A stretch of 41,106 nt of DNA from an archaeon (lineage in GTDB: Archaea > Iainarchaeota > Iainarchaeia > Iainarchaeales > 1-14-0-10-31-34), in NCBI GenBank assembly GCA_043819075.1, contig JBDRFE010000059.1, positions 1 through 41,106 on the forward strand, read 5' to 3'. A program made the position numbers and the translations under genes. Positions within the stretch are counted from its first letter, which is position 1, and every line of letters begins with the position of its first letter. Of the stretch, positions 9,770-41,102 are shown piece after piece. A model generated the notes under the pieces. The model ran no database searches. It saw only the letters and a list, made by a program, of their open reading frames with translations, and had not been told where the DNA came from.

Positions 9770-9943
9770 TGCGGCTAGCGGGAATCGAACCCGCAACTCA
9801 GGCTTATTCCAAAACCCGCTTCCGTGCGGGTGCAACGGTGCGCGGGATAAACCCGCGCTAGCACGACTTTATGTCGTGCGCTGGCGTCAACCGACAGCGG
9901 CGGTTGTTGGGAAGCCTGCATCTTACCACTGGACTATAGCCGC
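9770..9943 (-). tRNA. tRNA-Gly(CCC) with 103-nt intron (9805-9907) at 37/38
   Basis: Acceptor GCGGCTA/TAGCCGC, anticodon stem CAGGC/GCCTG, loop TT-CCC-A|A, T-arm GCGGG TTCGATT CCCGC, BHB central helix TTCC/GGAA. Confidence 0.95.
9861..9906 (-). repeat. 19+8+19 palindrome module, copy A (tRNA-Gly intron)
   Basis: CAACCGCCGCTGTCGGTTG ACGCCAGC GCACGACATAAAGTCGTGC on the minus strand. Confidence 0.85.
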
Positions 9944-12075: not shown

Positions 12076-12175
12076 CGCAGGGAGTGAGATTTGAACTCAC
12101 GCGTGCAAAGCACAGCGCGTTACTCTATTTTTCTGCTCGAGCGCGCCCCGTTTGGCCTGACTCCGGCACCCCTGC
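12076..12175 (-). tRNA. tRNA-Ser(CGA) with 15-nt intron (12121-12135)
   Basis: Acceptor GCAGGGG/TCCCTGC, G73, anticodon stem GCGCG/CGCGC, loop CT-CGA-G|A, variable arm GTGC-TTT-GCAC, T-arm GTGAG TTCAAAT CTCAC. Confidence 0.9.
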
Positions 12176-13081
12176 CAAAGATTCTAATTTCTTTTTCTTG
12201 TTAGAATGATTAAAGCTAATTAATTTTAAATAGTTTCTTATTCTGTCTTTTTTTCTTATTTCTAATAAATAATTGGTATTCCAGTTTTTTTGTTTTCTTT
12301 CATATTTATATATTTTGGATGTTTCAATTCCTAAACTCTCTAACATAAGCTTTATGCCATATAACCCTGTTTTGTTAACTGATTGTAGCTGAATTTTGTC
12401 TTTTCCAACATGGGCTTCACAGTCAAAGAAAGCCCTTAACCACTCAGCTTTCATGCTTTTTGTTTTAAGAAACTCAAAAGGAACCGCCCATTCATGGGTT
12501 CCAAATTTTGTTATTTTTGTTAAATCAAAATAAGCTACTTTGTGGCTGCCTTTCATTACATAGAACTTATGAATTTTGTGTTTTATTATATTAAATTTTT
12601 TGCCATAAAGTTCAAAAAAAGCGTAATTAAAGCTTTCAGCCATCTTAAAATCATCAGGATAAAAACCAATATCATATCTAAAGCTATTTGGTGATGAACC
12701 TGTTCTTTTGAATATTGTTCCGTCTCCTGCCAGATAGCCACAAATTCTGGCTTTTAGTTTTAAATAGTGTTCAGTATTTTTCTTTTCTAATTCATTTCTC
12801 AATTTTGCCAGTTTTTTATTCCACCTATCCCGATTTGCCCAAAACTCTTCAAGATATTCTGCTTTTGCTAAAAAATAATTTTGTTTCTTTTTTGGAATAA
12901 AACCCAGAAGTTCTTCAAATAATTTTTTTGGAAAAGTTCTTCTGTTATATTTAATGTCTTTTATAGTCCATCTGCTGTATGAAGTCTTATCAGCTAGTTT
13001 TGTCCAACTTTTAAATTTTTCTGATTTACTAATTAATTCAAAAAATTCATCTAAAACACGTTTTACTAATTTAACTCTCAC
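12125..13081 (-). CDS. Free-standing two-motif LAGLIDADG endonuclease-like protein with N-terminal HTH
   Basis: ICGYLAGDG and WLRAFFDCEA motifs; no intein splicing ends; stop codon lies inside the tRNA intron. Confidence 0.9.
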   Translation of the reverse strand: MRVKLVKRVLDEFFELISKSEKFKSWTKLADKTSYSRWTIKDIKYNRRTFPKKLFEELLGFIPKKKQNYFLAKAEYLEEFWANRDRWNKKLAKLRNELEKKNTEHYLKLKARICGYLAGDGTIFKRTGSSPNSFRYDIGFYPDDFKMAESFNYAFFELYGKKFNIIKHKIHKFYVMKGSHKVAYFDLTKITKFGTHEWAVPFEFLKTKSMKAEWLRAFFDCEAHVGKDKIQLQSVNKTGLYGIKLMLESLGIETSKIYKYERKQKNWNTNYLLEIRKKDRIRNYLKLISFNHSNKKKKLESLAGVPESGQTGRARAEK

Positions 13082-27242: not shown

Positions 27243-27390
27243 GGGCCCATAGTGCAATGGTAACACATTCCCTTCGCACCAACTGCCACTGTCAGTTGAC
27301 ACCAGCGCACGACTTCGCTGCGCTCAGTCCTGCTGTAGTTGCTTTATGCGAATCAGGGAAAGACTGCGGGTTCGATTCCCGCTGGGTCCA
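27243..27390 (+). tRNA. tRNA-Ala(CGC) with 76-nt intron (27279-27354)
   Basis: Acceptor GGGCCCA/TGGGTCC with G3:U70, anticodon stem TTCCC/GGGAA, loop TT-CGC-A|A, BHB helix TTCG/CGAA with CAC and TCA bulges. Confidence 0.95.
27280..27325 (+). repeat. Palindrome module, copy B (tRNA-Ala intron; second half degenerate)
   Basis: CAACTGCCACTGTCAGTTG ACACCAGC GCACGACTTCG... Confidence 0.85.
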
Positions 27391-29761: not shown

Positions 29762-30032
29762 TCACTAATAATACATTGTCTTGGTTTAAATTATTTTCTA
29801 TGGACAAACTCTTTTTCTTTTTCAAAAACAAAAACAGAATTTTATGTATATTCCAGAAACCTTTTTTAAATGCTTTTCTTCAAAAAAATAATCTGGTATT
29901 GGGAGTTAAGGAAGCAAGTCATACTGCTATGTCAGATCCCTGACTTGCTTTCTCAACGACTTTTCCTTATTACAACACTTTATTAATTTTTTTTAACTAA
30001 TTTTTTAGTATCAGTTTCTAGTTGTGGAGCTA

Positions 30033-30078
30033 GCTCCCCTGAAAGTGGTGCTGGCATACCAACCAAGCGTGACTGTTG
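30033..30078 (-). repeat. Palindrome module, copy D (tRNA-Ser(TGA) leader, reversed)
   Basis: GCTCCCCTGAAAGTGGTGC TGGCATAC CAACCAAGCGTGACTGTTG, then AA and tRNA +1. Confidence 0.75.
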
Positions 30079-30080
30079 AA

Positions 30081-30871: not shown

Positions 30872-31357
30872 ATGAACAAAAAAATGAGTGTTGGCTGGTT
30901 TTCTTTTTCCTGCTGTGAAGACTCAACAATTGTTTTCACTGAATTACTGAATGACCATTACCTTGAATGGCTTAAATTAGTTGACTTTAAGGCGTCAAGA
31001 ATCCTTAGAGGAAAAAACGATGAAACAAACTTGGATGTTGCTTTTGTTGAAGGCGCAATTGCAAGCAAAAAAGACGCAAAAAAATTAAAGGAAATAAGAA
31101 AGAATTCTAAAAAGCTTGTTGCAATCGGCTCCTGTGCTGTAACCGGAATGCCCAGCGCGCAAAGAAACGAGTTTGACCAAGAAAAAACAAAAGAAATTTC
31201 TTTTTTAGTTGAAAGATTTAAGCTGGCAAAAAAAGTTGTTCCATTGAATAAAATAGTTAAAGTTGATGCAAGCGTTTCAGGCTGTCCAATGGACGAAAAA
31301 GTTTTCTTAAAATTGTTTGATGAATTATTAAAGGAATTTGGTGCAAAAAATGCATAG
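30872..31357 (+). CDS. Short [NiFe]-hydrogenase small subunit (group 3 delta-like)
   Basis: SCCEDS, VAFVEGAI, AIGSCAVTG, SGCP. Confidence 0.85.
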   Translation: MNKKMSVGWFSFSCCEDSTIVFTELLNDHYLEWLKLVDFKASRILRGKNDETNLDVAFVEGAIASKKDAKKLKEIRKNSKKLVAIGSCAVTGMPSAQRNEFDQEKTKEISFLVERFKLAKKVVPLNKIVKVDASVSGCPMDEKVFLKLFDELLKEFGAKNA

Positions 31358-32633
31358 CTTTGATGTAACAATTGAAAACATTAGCAAGACAGAAGGCCAC
31401 GCAGGCCTTGATGTAAAAGTAAGAAATGGAAAAGTTTCTAAGGTTCAGTTCAAGATACTGGAAAGCAAAAGATTTTACACTCAGGCGATTCGTGGAAAAA
31501 ACTTTCTTGCCGCGCCCCAGTTAATGTCAAGAATCTGTGGAACCTGCAGTATTGCACACTTGTTCTGCTGCATTGAAGCAATAGAAAAAGCTCTTGAAAT
31601 ACAGGAATCAGAGCAAACCAGAATTTTAAGGACTCTTGTAATGAATGGCTTAATGATTCGCGACCATGCACTTCACTTGTATATGTTTAGTCTGCCGGAT
31701 GTAATAGGAAAAGATTCTATTCTGGATTTTGATGAAAAAAACGAGTTTGAGCATGAATTATTGCATGACACTTTTTCTGTGAAAGGAGCAGGAAACAATT
31801 TATCCAAATTAATTGCTGGCAGGTCAGTTCACGCCCCATTCCCTTCAATCGGAGGCTTTACAAAAATTCCTGACAAAAAAGATTTTCCTAAAATGATTTC
31901 AGAGCTTAAAGCCCAGAGAGAAAAAGTCCTGAAATTAATTGACATTTACTTTAAATGTGAGTTTGATTTCACGAGAAAAACAAATTTTGTTGCAATAACA
32001 AACAAAGACTATGATTTCAGGCAAGGAATGCTTTGTTCGAGTACTGGAGTCTGTGTTCCGGAAGAAAACATGGAACAGCATTTAGAGCACGTTATACTGC
32101 CTTATTCCCAGGCATCAGGATACAAGTTTCAGGGAGACGCTTTTATGGTTGGAGCTTTAGCAAGAATGAACTTAAACAAGAAAAGCCTGTGCAAGGAAAC
32201 AATTAAAGATACTTCAAGTTACCTGAAAAAATTTCCTTCAAACAACATTTATGACAACAATTTAGCTCAGGCAATAGAAGTATTGCATTGCATTGATTCA
32301 AGTGTTTCTCTTTTAGAGTCTTTTGAACCAAAGCCAGAGCCAAAACAAAACATTGTTCCAAAAAAAAGTTCAGGCATTGGAGTAATTGAAGCTCCAAGAG
32401 GAACTTTATTCTATAAAATTGACTTAAATGAAAAAGGAATTGTATCAAAAGCAAAAGTTGTTGTTCCTACCGGCCAGAACCAGATTAATATTGAAAAAGA
32501 TGTTGCTGCAATTGTCGAGAAAAACCTTAATGCCCCGAAAGAAAAAATTCAGTTTGAAATAGAAAAATTAATCCGAGCTTATGACCCGTGCATGAGCTGT
32601 GCCTCGCATTTCCTTAAAATAAACTGGCTTTAA
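31350..32633 (+). CDS. [NiFe]-hydrogenase large subunit (group 3b-like)
   Basis: KTEGH, L1 RICGTCSIAH, EAPRGTL, L2 YDPCMSCASH plus short tail. Confidence 0.92.
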   Translation: MHSFDVTIENISKTEGHAGLDVKVRNGKVSKVQFKILESKRFYTQAIRGKNFLAAPQLMSRICGTCSIAHLFCCIEAIEKALEIQESEQTRILRTLVMNGLMIRDHALHLYMFSLPDVIGKDSILDFDEKNEFEHELLHDTFSVKGAGNNLSKLIAGRSVHAPFPSIGGFTKIPDKKDFPKMISELKAQREKVLKLIDIYFKCEFDFTRKTNFVAITNKDYDFRQGMLCSSTGVCVPEENMEQHLEHVILPYSQASGYKFQGDAFMVGALARMNLNKKSLCKETIKDTSSYLKKFPSNNIYDNNLAQAIEVLHCIDSSVSLLESFEPKPEPKQNIVPKKSSGIGVIEAPRGTLFYKIDLNEKGIVSKAKVVVPTGQNQINIEKDVAAIVEKNLNAPKEKIQFEIEKLIRAYDPCMSCASHFLKINWL

Positions 32634-33028
32634 TTCTTTTTTTCTTTAATGTAATCTGAAATCAGTTTTTTTAATCCATTTAATGCCTGTTTTTGACTGA
32701 AATTCATTGGCACGCCAAAAACAATTACTTCTTCCAGCAAGCCGGTTTTTTCAAGCAGTTTCAGGTTAAAGCCTAAGTCAAAGTCATGCAGAGAAAAAAC
32801 TTTTTCTGAAACAATTTTTTCTGTTCCTTCAATTCTTTTGCATTCTTTTATTCCTTGCACGCAGTCAATTATCACAAGCTTTTTTCCCTGTTTTTCAAGG
32901 TTTTCGCTTGGGTCAAATTCCATGAAATCAATTAAAGGAAACTCTTTCCTTAACTCGGGCAGGATTTTTATTGGCACAGAATCTTTTTCCACTAAAATAT
33001 TTCCAAAAACAAGTATTTTTTGTTTCAT
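32630..33028 (-). CDS. Hydrogenase maturation protease-like protein
   Basis: LVFGNILVEKD, VIIDCV, SLHDF. Confidence 0.8.
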   Translation of the reverse strand: MKQKILVFGNILVEKDSVPIKILPELRKEFPLIDFMEFDPSENLEKQGKKLVIIDCVQGIKECKRIEGTEKIVSEKVFSLHDFDLGFNLKLLEKTGLLEEVIVFGVPMNFSQKQALNGLKKLISDYIKEKKN

Positions 33029-33086
33029 AAACAATTAATTGAATTAAATATAAGTATTTAAAACCCTTTCAGCATTAGTTTTTTTT

Positions 33087-36632: not shown

Positions 36633-36691
36633 CAGTTTTTAATTGTTTTATCATCCAATTTTTATTGCTATTTTTTGAGTTGGCGAAGCAA

Positions 36692-36737
36692 GCTGGACTG
36701 AAAGTCTTGCACGCATACCAACCGAGCGTGACGGTTG
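36692..36737 (-). repeat. Palindrome module, copy E (tRNA-Ser(GGA) leader, reversed)
   Basis: GCTGGACTGAAAGTCTTGC ACGCATAC CAACCGAGCGTGACGGTTG, then AA and tRNA +1. Confidence 0.8.
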
Positions 36738-36739
36738 AA

Positions 36740-38150: not shown

Positions 38151-40148
38151 TCATTTAAACCATCCTTTTAACCATTCAATGAAATCATTCACTAATCCAG
38201 GCAATACAATTTGCCCTGTCGGAGGTCCATAATCTCTTGGAGGATGGCCTTCTTCCCAGTTGTCAGGTCCTGTTCCAGGGTTGTCTCCCCATTCACTTGG
38301 GTCATAGTTTTTGCATTCAACTCCGCTGATACAGCTTTTTCCGTCTGGTGTAGGTGATTCAATTGTTTCAGCATACTGTTTGTTTGCAATACAGGTTTCC
38401 TGTAATGCTTCTAATTGTTCTGCATTCAGGCAGTGCTCGTATCCGATTCCTGGCCCGTATTCTGCCATACATTTTTCTTCGCATGCAACACAAACCGGAT
38501 CGCTTCCTCCGGGTTCGCATCTCCTGTTTTCAGCGCAAATCATTATACATCCCTGGAATGGGTCTAATTCCCCGTTCACAAAAGGCCCTTCTCCTTCTCC
38601 TCTTAAACCGCATTCTAGTTCACATGAATCCATGTTTTTCTGCATGCAGGCAAACTGTCCTTCATCACAGTCTTTTACAATGCATTCTTCCATGCAGGCT
38701 TCTTCTGGTGAACCAGTTCCATGAGTTTTAGAAAACATTTCTTTTAATGCATCACAGTCTCCTGAACAGGAAAAATTAACTAATTTTCTTGGGTCACTGA
38801 AATTCCTGTAAGCGTTTTCTGGCAAAGCAAACTGTGCTTTTTTCCCTTCTTTTGTATTCAATGTCATCAAACAGTTTTCTCCGTCAAACAATAACTGCAC
38901 TTTAACTACAAAGCCTTCTGGGTCAGGCGGAACAAACTCTTTTTCATTTCCTGCTGAATACTTGTCGCAGCCCCTTACTATTTCTAGCGCGCCTTTTTCT
39001 GCTTCAACAAATTTCTGGAATTCTTCTTCGCTTCCAAAAGGCGAGCCATAAAACTTGTCAAACTGCTGTGCCACTGCCTCTTCTATTTCCTGTAGTGAAG
39101 GCACTTTTCCTGTTGCAACTGCTTTAACTGCTTTTGATATTTCTTTTCTTATTGACTGGATGTCAATCCTGATTTGATTCATTTCTTCTTGAGTTAAATC
39201 GCCTGAATTTAACTGGCTTTTCATTGAGCTAATCTTTAACTGGATTTCACCCATTTTTTGGATTGCATATTCAACTGCCTGAAATGCTTCTGTTTCTCCC
39301 AGTTCTTTATATCCTTGTTTTATTTTTTCAAGTTTTTTTCCTGTTTCAGCTATTCTTTCCTGGAAAGCATTCAGCCTGTCAGCAACTTCAGCCATTTCCT
39401 GGGGAGTGATTTCCCTTGAATTCGGTTTGACTCCAATCGGGTCATTGAATTCCATTATGCAGGTTGGCTTATCTTTTATCATCATAAACTGGCCGCCGTC
39501 TTTCTGGCACTGGATTGCCTGAGCTTTTACCGGGTCATCAGAGTATTTTTCTTTTATTGCTTCATCATATTTTTCCTTGAATTCCTGGTTAACACACATT
39601 ACTGCTTTGCATCCTTTTTCGTCAGTGAATTCTTCTGCTTTTCCCTTGCAGTTTGCTTTAACTGAATTTAATTCTTTTTCTGTCGGGCAGGCTGTTCCGG
39701 TAAAACCTTGTTTTCCTTCTTTAATGCAGGCAGGCTTTCCGTTAATCATTTCAAATTTTCCGTCACAGTTCTCTATTTCCTGTTTTAAGTCAAATTCATT
39801 GAATTCCGGTTCATCAAAATCAAAATCGCATTCAATTCCTGCAATTCCTGTCCCTGAATCAACTTTACGGCATCCATCTGGAACAGGCTGATCTCCAAAA
39901 GTTTCCATTGGAGGAATTCCTTCAGGCAGCATTTCATTTCCTTGTGGTTCATTCATTGGAGGCTCCATAGGCTGTTCTGGAACAAAAACTGGTTCTGGTT
40001 CAGGCTGGGGCTGAGTTTCAGAATCTGTTTCTCCTTCAAACAAGATTAATCCTGTCTGGGCATTAATTAATGGAATCAAAATGATTGCAGTAAACAAAAT
40101 ATACAATGGAATTCTGTGCAATCTTATGTCACCAGATTTTGCAGGCAT
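38151..40148 (-). CDS. Secreted Cys-rich acidic protein with central coiled coil
   Basis: Signal-like N-terminus, PQPEPEP linker, CxxxC repeats. Confidence 0.8.
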   Translation of the reverse strand: MPAKSGDIRLHRIPLYILFTAIILIPLINAQTGLILFEGETDSETQPQPEPEPVFVPEQPMEPPMNEPQGNEMLPEGIPPMETFGDQPVPDGCRKVDSGTGIAGIECDFDFDEPEFNEFDLKQEIENCDGKFEMINGKPACIKEGKQGFTGTACPTEKELNSVKANCKGKAEEFTDEKGCKAVMCVNQEFKEKYDEAIKEKYSDDPVKAQAIQCQKDGGQFMMIKDKPTCIMEFNDPIGVKPNSREITPQEMAEVADRLNAFQERIAETGKKLEKIKQGYKELGETEAFQAVEYAIQKMGEIQLKISSMKSQLNSGDLTQEEMNQIRIDIQSIRKEISKAVKAVATGKVPSLQEIEEAVAQQFDKFYGSPFGSEEEFQKFVEAEKGALEIVRGCDKYSAGNEKEFVPPDPEGFVVKVQLLFDGENCLMTLNTKEGKKAQFALPENAYRNFSDPRKLVNFSCSGDCDALKEMFSKTHGTGSPEEACMEECIVKDCDEGQFACMQKNMDSCELECGLRGEGEGPFVNGELDPFQGCIMICAENRRCEPGGSDPVCVACEEKCMAEYGPGIGYEHCLNAEQLEALQETCIANKQYAETIESPTPDGKSCISGVECKNYDPSEWGDNPGTGPDNWEEGHPPRDYGPPTGQIVLPGLVNDFIEWLKGWFK

Positions 40149-40281
40149 ACTCTCTATTACGCATTCCTTGTTTAAATATTTTTTGTGTTATTTTTTAGAG
40201 CCAGAAAACCGATTTAAACCTGTTGATTCACAGGCAATGACGTTTAGAAAAGATTTTGTGTTCTTAAGCTAAAATTATTTT

Positions 40282-41031
40282 ATGGAGTTCACTGAAAACC
40301 ATGCAGAACTAGTTGGCTTACAGTTCGGTGACGGAAGCCTGATTAGAAGAAAAAAAACAAATAGGGTTAGATTTCAGCTAAGGGGTGATGCAACAAGTGA
40401 CAGAGAACATTATACTGCTTTTATTATCCCTCTTTGTAATGAATTAATTGGTTTCCCTTTGCTTGGCAGAGAAGTTAGAACTGTTTTTGATAGAAATAGG
40501 AATTGTTTTGGAGTTTCAGTTGAAAGCAACACTTTAGTGAATTTTTTTCAAGAACTAGAAGTGAATGTTGGAAAAAAAGAAGAACTTCTGGTTCCTGACT
40601 GGATAAAAAACAATGAAAATTTTTCCAAAGCTTTTATTAGAGGTTTATTTGATACTGATGGAAGTATTTCTTATAAAAAGAACAACACTGCTAAAAGCAA
40701 TCTTCACACAGTAGGAGTTCTAAGCATTGTTTCTACTTCAAAAATTCTTATAACCGATGTTTCGTTTATCCTTTCCCATTTGGGATTAAAACATTATGTT
40801 AGAATACACAAAAAAAGTAACGGAGAAAAAGATGCTTATAGAATAGATATTTATAACCCTTATCTATCAAAGTTTATGTGTGTTATAGGGTCTCATAACC
40901 CAAAACATTTAACCAAATTTGAAATTGCATCAAAATTTGGTTTTTGCCCTCCCTATACAACTCCCATTCAAAGGAAGCAAATTTTAAAAGGTGTTCTTAA
41001 TCCTTTTTCTTTATACGCGGGAGTCCCATAG
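40282..41031 (+). CDS. Free-standing two-motif LAGLIDADG endonuclease-like protein
   Basis: AELVGLQFGDG and FIRGLFDTDG; last codons lie inside tRNA-Leu. Confidence 0.92.
   Translation: MEFTENHAELVGLQFGDGSLIRRKKTNRVRFQLRGDATSDREHYTAFIIPLCNELIGFPLLGREVRTVFDRNRNCFGVSVESNTLVNFFQELEVNVGKKEELLVPDWIKNNENFSKAFIRGLFDTDGSISYKKNNTAKSNLHTVGVLSIVSTSKILITDVSFILSHLGLKHYVRIHKKSNGEKDAYRIDIYNPYLSKFMCVIGSHNPKHLTKFEIASKFGFCPPYTTPIQRKQILKGVLNPFSLYAGVP
40982..40989 (+). promoter_or_regulatory. Candidate TATA box for tRNA-Leu, inside the LAGLIDADG CDS
   Basis: TTTTAAAA about 30 nt upstream of tRNA +1, preceded by purine-rich GAAGCAAA. Confidence 0.45.
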
Positions 41032-41102
41032 CCCGGTCAATTGGACTAGCTTGAGGGGCTAGTGACTTAGTGTCTTCGAGAGTTCGAATCTCTCCTCCCG
41101 CA
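41017..41102 (+). tRNA. tRNA-Leu(GAG)
   Basis: Acceptor GCGGGAG/CTCCCGC, A73, CTAGC TT-GAG-GG GCTAG, variable arm, T-arm GAGAG TTCGAAT CTCTC. Confidence 0.95.

Follow-up and report, generated by a model that had tools for sequence, protein, structure and literature searches.

A free-standing LAGLIDADG endonuclease gene overlaps the 5' end of a tRNA-Leu(GAG) gene at the end of the window, by which we mean the whole stretch of 41,106 nucleotides that was analysed. This arrangement is real and recurrent, and it is apparently unpublished: no description of a LAGLIDADG gene at a tRNA 5' end was found in the main texts of the open literature searched. We think it probable that the gene belongs to a DPANN family of free-standing homing endonuclease genes (HEGs) in which each clade is attached to one tRNA gene, this clade to Leu(GAG) or Leu(AAG), and which would pass through the following cycle. 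The enzyme would make its cut close to the 5' end of a Leu(GAG) allele that lacks the gene, probably at about nucleotides 16-25 in the D-arm. Repair off the occupied allele would then bring in not only the HEG but also the adjoining 5' end of the tRNA and a new promoter, formed by the last codons of the HEG. The tRNA would remain intact and be transcribed from the embedded TATA box, with a leader of a few nucleotides trimmed by RNase P, so that neither an intron nor an intein would be necessary. After fixation the HEG would decay and then be deleted, and its promoter-bearing tail, which cannot go, would stay as a scar.

The features of the locus and of a sister locus in the same window are collected in Table 1. 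The tRNA-Leu(GAG) is the single copy in the assembly; a second one, on contig C41, was rejected as an extra gene, being an overlap between two contig ends. Two TTTAAA boxes (40171 and 40213) in the gap between the endonuclease gene and the divergent upstream gene are candidate promoters. Elsewhere in the window, positions 30872-33034 hold what reads by eye as a cluster of [NiFe]-hydrogenase small subunit, large subunit and maturation protease.

Table 1. Coordinates of the endonuclease genes, their tRNA genes and associated features in the window
Feature	Position	Strand	Remarks
Sister LAGLIDADG gene	12125..13081	-	318 aa; other clade; extends 48 nt into tRNA
tRNA-Ser(CGA) with short anticodon-loop intron	12076..12175	-	identity read by eye
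Divergent upstream gene	38151..40148	-	665 aa; without Pfam match; marker of the orthologous site
Gap between divergent upstream gene and endonuclease start	40149..40281		133 nt
LAGLIDADG endonuclease gene	40282..41031	+	249 aa; free-standing, single-chain, two-motif
First LAGLIDADG helix, AELVGLQFGDG	40303..40335	+	metal-binding Asp17
Second LAGLIDADG helix, AFIRGLFDTDG	40630..40662	+	metal-binding Asp126
Putative tRNA promoter in ORF	40970..40989	+	BRE-like purine-rich 40970-40981 and TATA-like TTTTAAAA 40982-40989
tRNA-Leu(GAG)	41017..41102	+	intronless; nt 1-15 shared with the ORF (its final four codons and stop)

Single-chain LAGLIDADG homing endonucleases are described as having a pair of LAGLIDADG helices with a metal-binding D or E at the end of each (PMC6294521). 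In the 249-aa protein, which matches Pfam LAGLIDADG_3 with an E of 1.2e-12, the residues G16, D17 and G18 of the first helix and D124, T125, D126 and G127 of the second are the same in all 58 aligned homologs, and the active site is unchanged across homologs at 30-75% identity. Its AlphaFold2 model (pLDDT 96, pTM 0.92) has its best fold matches in I-Tsp061I (E 8.9e-10, TM 0.65/0.77) and I-DmoI, and the conserved extension at its C-terminus (about 45 aa, KFGFCPP..ILKG..NP..Y) is typical of the family. Pfam gave no intein splicing (Hint) domain in this stand-alone frame, an N-terminal HTH is absent from the protein, and NCBIfam matches lie far under the cut-off and cover the endonuclease part alone; nor is the arrangement that of an intron-encoded gene, the tRNA being intronless and downstream of the ORF. 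Judged by its motifs and predicted fold the protein is a LAGLIDADG endonuclease, and by the features tested it falls outside the intron, intein, WhiA, WHO and SegB families. Its closest named homologs come from Ca. Diapherotrites/Iainarchaeum, which makes a member of the Iainarchaeota the most likely host.

The details of the overlap were stated correctly by the original prediction, which had the ORF end in YAGVP*, with GCG GGA GTC CCA TAG being tRNA nucleotides 1-15, and had both acidic motif residues (GDG, DTDG) in place: the frame ends ...SLYAGVP* in exactly these codons, and the residues are D17 and D126. It had further claimed that two LAGLIDADG ORFs of the window, otherwise divergent, enter their tRNAs in frame at +1 and both encode AGVP, and this also holds, the 249-aa and 318-aa proteins being distant kin (BLASTP E 0.18; profile E 7e-8, 16% identity). 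The tRNA-Ser(CGA) of the sister gene was missed by ARAGORN in a default scan and labelled Thr in another. The common AGVP arises from the fact that Leu and Ser tRNAs both start GCRGGRGT. As a rule, in-frame entry breaks down over 109 head-to-tail loci, where 32 ORFs overlap in the frame of the window gene, 23 and 3 in the other two frames, and 51 stop before +1; the corresponding numbers within the clade of the window protein are 14, 6, 2 and 2. On these counts we reject a frame rule, so that the shared frame and AGVP are real in both window ORFs but incidental.

At the level of the genome, 32 LAGLIDADG_3 matches were obtained, and four of the longer frames, when read, look like intein-bearing host proteins. 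Seven frames are shorter than 350 aa; five of them extend into the 5' end of a tRNA gene (Leu GAG, Ser CGA, Leu TAG, Ala GGC and Glu CTC), the sixth stops 42 nt before a tRNA-Phe, and the seventh lies behind a tRNA-Thr and continues into the relic of a tRNA 3' half. The genome has 899 ORFs with a length of 150 aa or more. The ends of 23 fall between -150 and +100 of a tRNA, and an overlap with the tRNA 5' end is seen in just five, all of which are LAGLIDADG ORFs, so the association exceeds chance.

Several other observations were made on the tRNA genes of this genome (G000). The ORF at C60:6390-7480 and the one at locus L279 encode sister proteins; both genes stand behind a tRNA-Thr(CGT) and extend into what is left of a tRNA 3' half. 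Two more tRNAs with introns, assigned to Gly and Ala, lie at 9770-9943 (-) and 27243-27390 (+) of the window and were missed by the default tRNA scan. GC-rich hairpin repeats end exactly at a tRNA +1 at 30000-30080 and 36660-36739 of the window and also on C2, C9, C32, C36, C60 and C71, and in a genome of the same genus (G004) such a repeat stands in reverse at a tRNA 3' end. Two RNase P RNA genes (C70:708-1025 and C41:8672-8942) are identical at 234 of 270 aligned bases, one of them with a 5' insertion, and represent either a duplication or a contamination of the bin.

The link with tRNA genes extends over archaea. A tRNA adjoins the 3' end of the ORF in 132 of 168 homolog loci, two duplicates included, namely in 14 of 20 short frames that were picked by Pfam score alone among the matches listed (150 of 361), in 59 of 80 GTDB loci, and in 59 of 68 phylum loci among the matches listed (150 of 683); for metagenome loci the proportion is 26 of 37. 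The 36 unassigned loci include 15 with a tRNA recognized by eye, one ORF that reads through a whole tRNA and one that ends in a tRNA 3' half, and those identified among the rest are four before a thiolase gene and one in a 16S intron. When 20 of 21 unassigned loci in one set, plus one more locus, were compared with Rfam, the 16S intron was located at L035 and the read-through at L066. Some homologs are exceptions, with no tRNA nearby.

Moreover, the protein clades follow the type of the adjoining tRNA. On a FastTree tree of the 168 proteins with 33 labels, 38 label changes were counted against 121.6 with shuffled labels, a clustering to which near-copies and shared ancestry add, and since the loci are kin p-values would overstate it; ARAGORN mislabels many intron-bearing tRNAs, and about 60 of the tree labels were set by eye. 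The clade of the window protein has 26 rows with a support of 99, of which 25 are labelled Leu(GAG) or Leu(AAG) and the 26th is the read-through case. Other clades go with Arg(TCG), Leu(TAA), Leu(CAA), His, Glu and Gln, and convergent ones with Ile, Thr and Gly, so that a tie of each clade to one tRNA type is supported by the tree. The survey for tRNA overlap and the comparison of protein phylogeny with tRNA isotype, both proposed beforehand, thus come out on the side of the prediction.

In addition, a few groups of homologs deserve a description of their own. One clade (L138, L140, L149 and L243) overlaps the start of a thiolase gene, not a tRNA, and we read it as a target switch to a protein gene. 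In a convergent class (L039, L111, L115, L123, L157 and others) the ORF enters the tRNA 3' end on the opposite strand, where the acceptor sequence of the tRNA reads like a 5' end. A tRNA-Leu with the anticodon AAG (A34), which is unusual in archaea, replaces Leu(GAG) in a Woese-/Pacearchaeota group (L054, L057-L064, L067 and L069). Distant homologs (P0091, P0099, P0101-P0112), one of them named 'bacterium', have the tRNA-like tails GEVPKWS, GRVPKRS and GGVG, a hint that the same habit may exist in CPR bacteria.

Occupied, decayed and empty alleles are met at one orthologous site. The first 30 of 87 Leu(GAG) matches were surveyed and comprise two intact loci, one frameshifted (G084), six tail-only (G023, G027, G074, G136, G150 and G190, scoring 17.7-36.7 bits) and 21 empty; the null for a tail remnant reached at most 3.6 bits over 43 leaders, and the empty loci score up to 5.2. 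The leader of G002 was rejected as a remnant and counted as empty, being suggestive by BLAST and scoring 38 vs a null maximum of 36 in a first comparison, yet scoring 5.2 bits in the anchored test. The close subfamily occurs in 6 of the 201 genomes searched, in four families. Within the genus, G000 and G001 are filled and the other four of the six genomes (G002, G003, G004 and G005) lack the ORF; the upstream gene of G000 is shared by G003 and G004, where the orthologous site is empty, and that of G001 by G002. In family f20 one FKBP-type gene lies upstream of the site, whose states are empty, frameshifted, 44-codon and 12-codon, and at L356 the first 14 codons are fused to the last 52, which gives the direction as deletion. 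The distribution is thus patchy, and a gene always present and strictly vertical, named by the prediction as the finding that would speak against it, was not what we found.

This series has to be weighed against a simpler history, in which the HEG was inserted once in an ancestor and has since been immobile, inherited vertically with loss, only its promoter tail mattering to the host; we regard it as improbable, though the strongest of the rivals. Frameshifted and tail-only alleles outnumber intact ones by 7 to 2, the clade of the window protein splits broadly by host group, and the HEG shows no sign of recent transfer between G000 and G001, as its pS of 0.52 for this pair falls within the 0.39-0.65 spanned by eight other genes after a shadow frame had been discarded, all of which would suit an immobile gene. 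Set against this, dN/dS is 0.07-0.18 in 6 of 15 pairs of intact copies, the other nine being saturated, and these values indicate that intact copies are under purifying selection. Such selection across the whole ORF is unexpected if just the last 35 nt are needed, and so is the invariant active site. Furthermore, G084 has the gene and five of its congeners share a common unscarred leader, and a tree of one gene, glmS, pairs G000 with the empty G002 (90/90) and does not make the two filled genomes sisters.

A possible trace of mobility was seen in the sequencing run X4. A 6.8-kb contig (depth 15) is identical to the window at 39400-39963, a stretch of 564 nt within the upstream gene; it departs from the window at 40017-40106 and resumes the match at tRNA nucleotide 18, with 258 letters between and without the HEG. 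The HEG is matched in that run by another contig, which is short and of low depth. The pattern would look like a conversion tract in a close strain, as judged from a single record matched at 85% likeness with the letters unread; an exact search of JGI metagenomes gave no same-species contig. On these comparisons homing by this gene is likely.

Purifying selection and the stable tie to one tRNA type would also suit a WhiA-like protein that has been domesticated to bind DNA and regulate its own tRNA gene, a reading which the original prediction had offered as the alternative. There is a precedent in WhiA itself (PMC3984707), and several clades have N-terminal extensions that look HTH-like by eye. 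This reading is nevertheless quite unlikely, as both metal-binding Asp are retained in the window protein, no WhiA N-terminal or HTH_WhiA match appears in Pfam or NCBIfam at E 0.1, and four of the six genomes in the genus lack the gene, which is decayed in many other genomes.

How the tRNA could be transcribed behind the HEG is indicated by the last codons of the ORF. The TATA-like TTTTAAAA is spelled by the codons of Ile-Leu-Lys and lies at -35 to -28 from the tRNA +1, and across loci TT(T/A)AAA has a positional peak at -36 to -30. The codons are constrained there: Leu-Lys/Asn dicodons at -39 to -29 spell TTAAA in 43 of 46 cases (three duplicates included), in two registers, TTA AAA and CTT AAA, as against 125 of 279 elsewhere in the same ORFs, and the homologous Leu-Lys column, duplicates dropped, spells it in 35 of 36 sequences when at -40 to -28 and in 8 of 17 when not. 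The region is retained in tail-only remnants. In the empty Leu(GAG) leaders TTAAA occurs at -35 to -31 in 9 of 21 and at -44 to -48 in 6 of 21, and the other tRNA leaders of the genome have a weak TATA peak, many of them carrying hairpin repeats. We infer from codon choice and position that the box in the Leu-Lys codons is the tRNA promoter. For a TATA-to-start distance of 19-24 bp, as reported (PMC2602779), the leader from this box would be 3-8 nt.

The same region bears on the notion that the HEG hides, intron-like, in a long 5' leader, being placed between the old promoter and +1, co-transcribed with the tRNA and removed by RNase P. RNase P RNA is present in the genome, the upstream TTTAAATA region is similar to that of the empty G003, G150 retains an old TATA beside its tail, and read-through with RNase P cleavage could still restrict expression of the HEG. 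We hold this notion very improbable, however, since the second TATA at -35 is maintained by codon choice and spared by deletions, and stubs left upstream in relatives place the break inside the tRNA, not at +1. What had been predicted as recurrent tRNA-leader homing therefore stands as to the recurrent link with tRNA 5' ends, the isotype-tied clades and the filled or empty state of the site, and not as to a long removable leader: the data point to a gene that equips the tRNA with a new promoter, to which relatives add a new 5' end.

These stubs are 16-24 nt of tRNA 5' end, ending in the D-arm without a T-arm, and are found upstream of some ORFs, in the clade of the window protein at L068, L327, L332 and L334 (the last identical to L335 and L336), and in other clades at six Arg(TCG) loci and one His locus. 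Above the stub threshold there are 2 of 23 genome loci of this clade against 1 of 23 antisense controls, and 8 of 34 Arg(TCG) loci, one of them a whole tRNA, against no antisense control; the matches at L095 and L338 were rejected as whole tRNAs. An old stub was found neither in the 133-nt gap of the window (score -2.5) nor at 7 Iainarchaeota loci. This suggests entry within the tRNA with a new 5' end supplied, the stub having been eroded at the window locus. At the same time, the first 33-38 nt of the occupied tRNA recur unchanged in empty alleles (G000 vs G030; G084 vs G065, G132 and G196), which counts against a simple version of a break in the tRNA. If the occupied allele is immune, as we infer, an altered tRNA sequence was rejected as the means over nucleotides 1-38, where no such change was found. 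It was also observed that the tRNA-Arg(TCG) behind an endonuclease often starts with A and has an atypical D-arm (L081, L095, L102, L106, L119 and L121), and possibly these are escape alleles.

The least probable of the rivals takes the locus as a remnant of tRNA-integrating viruses or islands with att-site duplication, the LAGLIDADG gene being cargo and not the mover: tRNA genes are common integration sites and duplicated tRNA fragments lie beside some ORFs, but the insert, which host genes flank at either end, amounts to the ORF and about 100 nt more, IMG/VR holds no close relative (best E 4e-11), and there are many independent clades, each with its own tRNA. None of 80 distant viral matches is near a tRNA, all 80 being long, intein-type frames that confound this control.

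The preferred reading, of a tRNA-directed HEG that would spread horizontally by cutting empty alleles, has several implications. Homing endonucleases are normally harmless by residing in introns or inteins. The family would represent a third solution in cellular genomes, in which a very small essential gene has its promoter and front end replaced, and the Leu(GAG) site would offer a full series of invasion, decay and loss at a single orthologous position. The promoter tail would be a scar that classical models do not predict, and because of such scars many ordinary-looking DPANN tRNA promoters may be fossils of endonucleases. Frequent exchange of DNA among DPANN cells would be implied, and a route would be given for testing the spread of odd DPANN tRNA variants and introns. 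A wider reading, for and against which we see the balance as even, is that these are active, splice-free elements of DPANN (and probably also CPR), each clade cutting one tRNA type in the D-arm, rebuilding its front end and making the host dependent on the promoter, so that tRNA promoters and 5' ends are repeatedly rewritten. If true, tRNA genes would be programmable landing sites for splice-free elements, and there would be dozens of divergent meganucleases with targets that may be guessed from the adjacent tRNA.

Regarding known systems, I-DmoI and I-Tsp061I are encoded inside archaeal rRNA introns. They (PDB 2vs7, 2dch) share with the window protein the single-chain two-motif fold and both acidic residues, whereas its gene lies outside any intron and adds the conserved C-terminal extension. 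WhiA has lost the catalytic residues and carries a C-terminal HTH. WhiA/DUF199 is alike in having a LAGLIDADG fold outside an intron or intein and differs in being a transcription factor (PMC3984707); here the catalytic residues are kept, and the gene is patchy and decaying (6 of 201 genomes; 2 intact of 30 loci). LAGLIDADG genes in rRNA introns and homing endonucleases in CPR rRNA spacers are known (PMC7143001, PMC6125680, PMC11270868, bioRxiv 10.1101/2020.03.05.979740). Those in CPR rRNA insertion sequences belong to the same Pfam families and to small-genome microbes, but they lie inside rRNA genes, and the word tRNA is absent from the main text of that report (Tsurumaki et al. 2024, PMC11270868). 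Intronless homing, which the proposed cycle resembles, is an established mode of working (PMC3984707), and we rank two systems as the closest to the cycle, namely the yeast WHO elements and phage T4 SegB. A WHO element is likewise a LAGLIDADG-type homing gene beside, not in, a conserved host gene, without splicing, where one end of the target is replaced and duplicated fragments and pseudogenes are left; it differs in the fusion of an intein to a zinc finger, the position at the 3' end of the protein gene FBA1, the tandem clusters and the cleavage that has been shown (Coughlan et al. 2020, PMC7282813). Here, a predicted enzyme of 249 aa, which lacks the intein-like and zinc-finger domains of WHO, is found in archaea at a tRNA 5' end with the putative promoter in its codons, and a duplicated target fragment of the WHO type occurs in the four stub-bearing clade members named above, with none at the window locus. 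SegB is likewise free-standing; its gene stands in a group of tRNA genes, and this homing endonuclease cuts such genes and propagates through intronless homing. It differs by its GIY-YIG fold, its phage home, its 27-bp site at the T-arm and 3' end, and its many tRNA types (Brok-Volchanskaya et al. 2008, PMC2330249), in contrast to the LAGLIDADG genes described here, which reside in a cellular chromosome, overlap the tRNA and keep to one tRNA type per clade.
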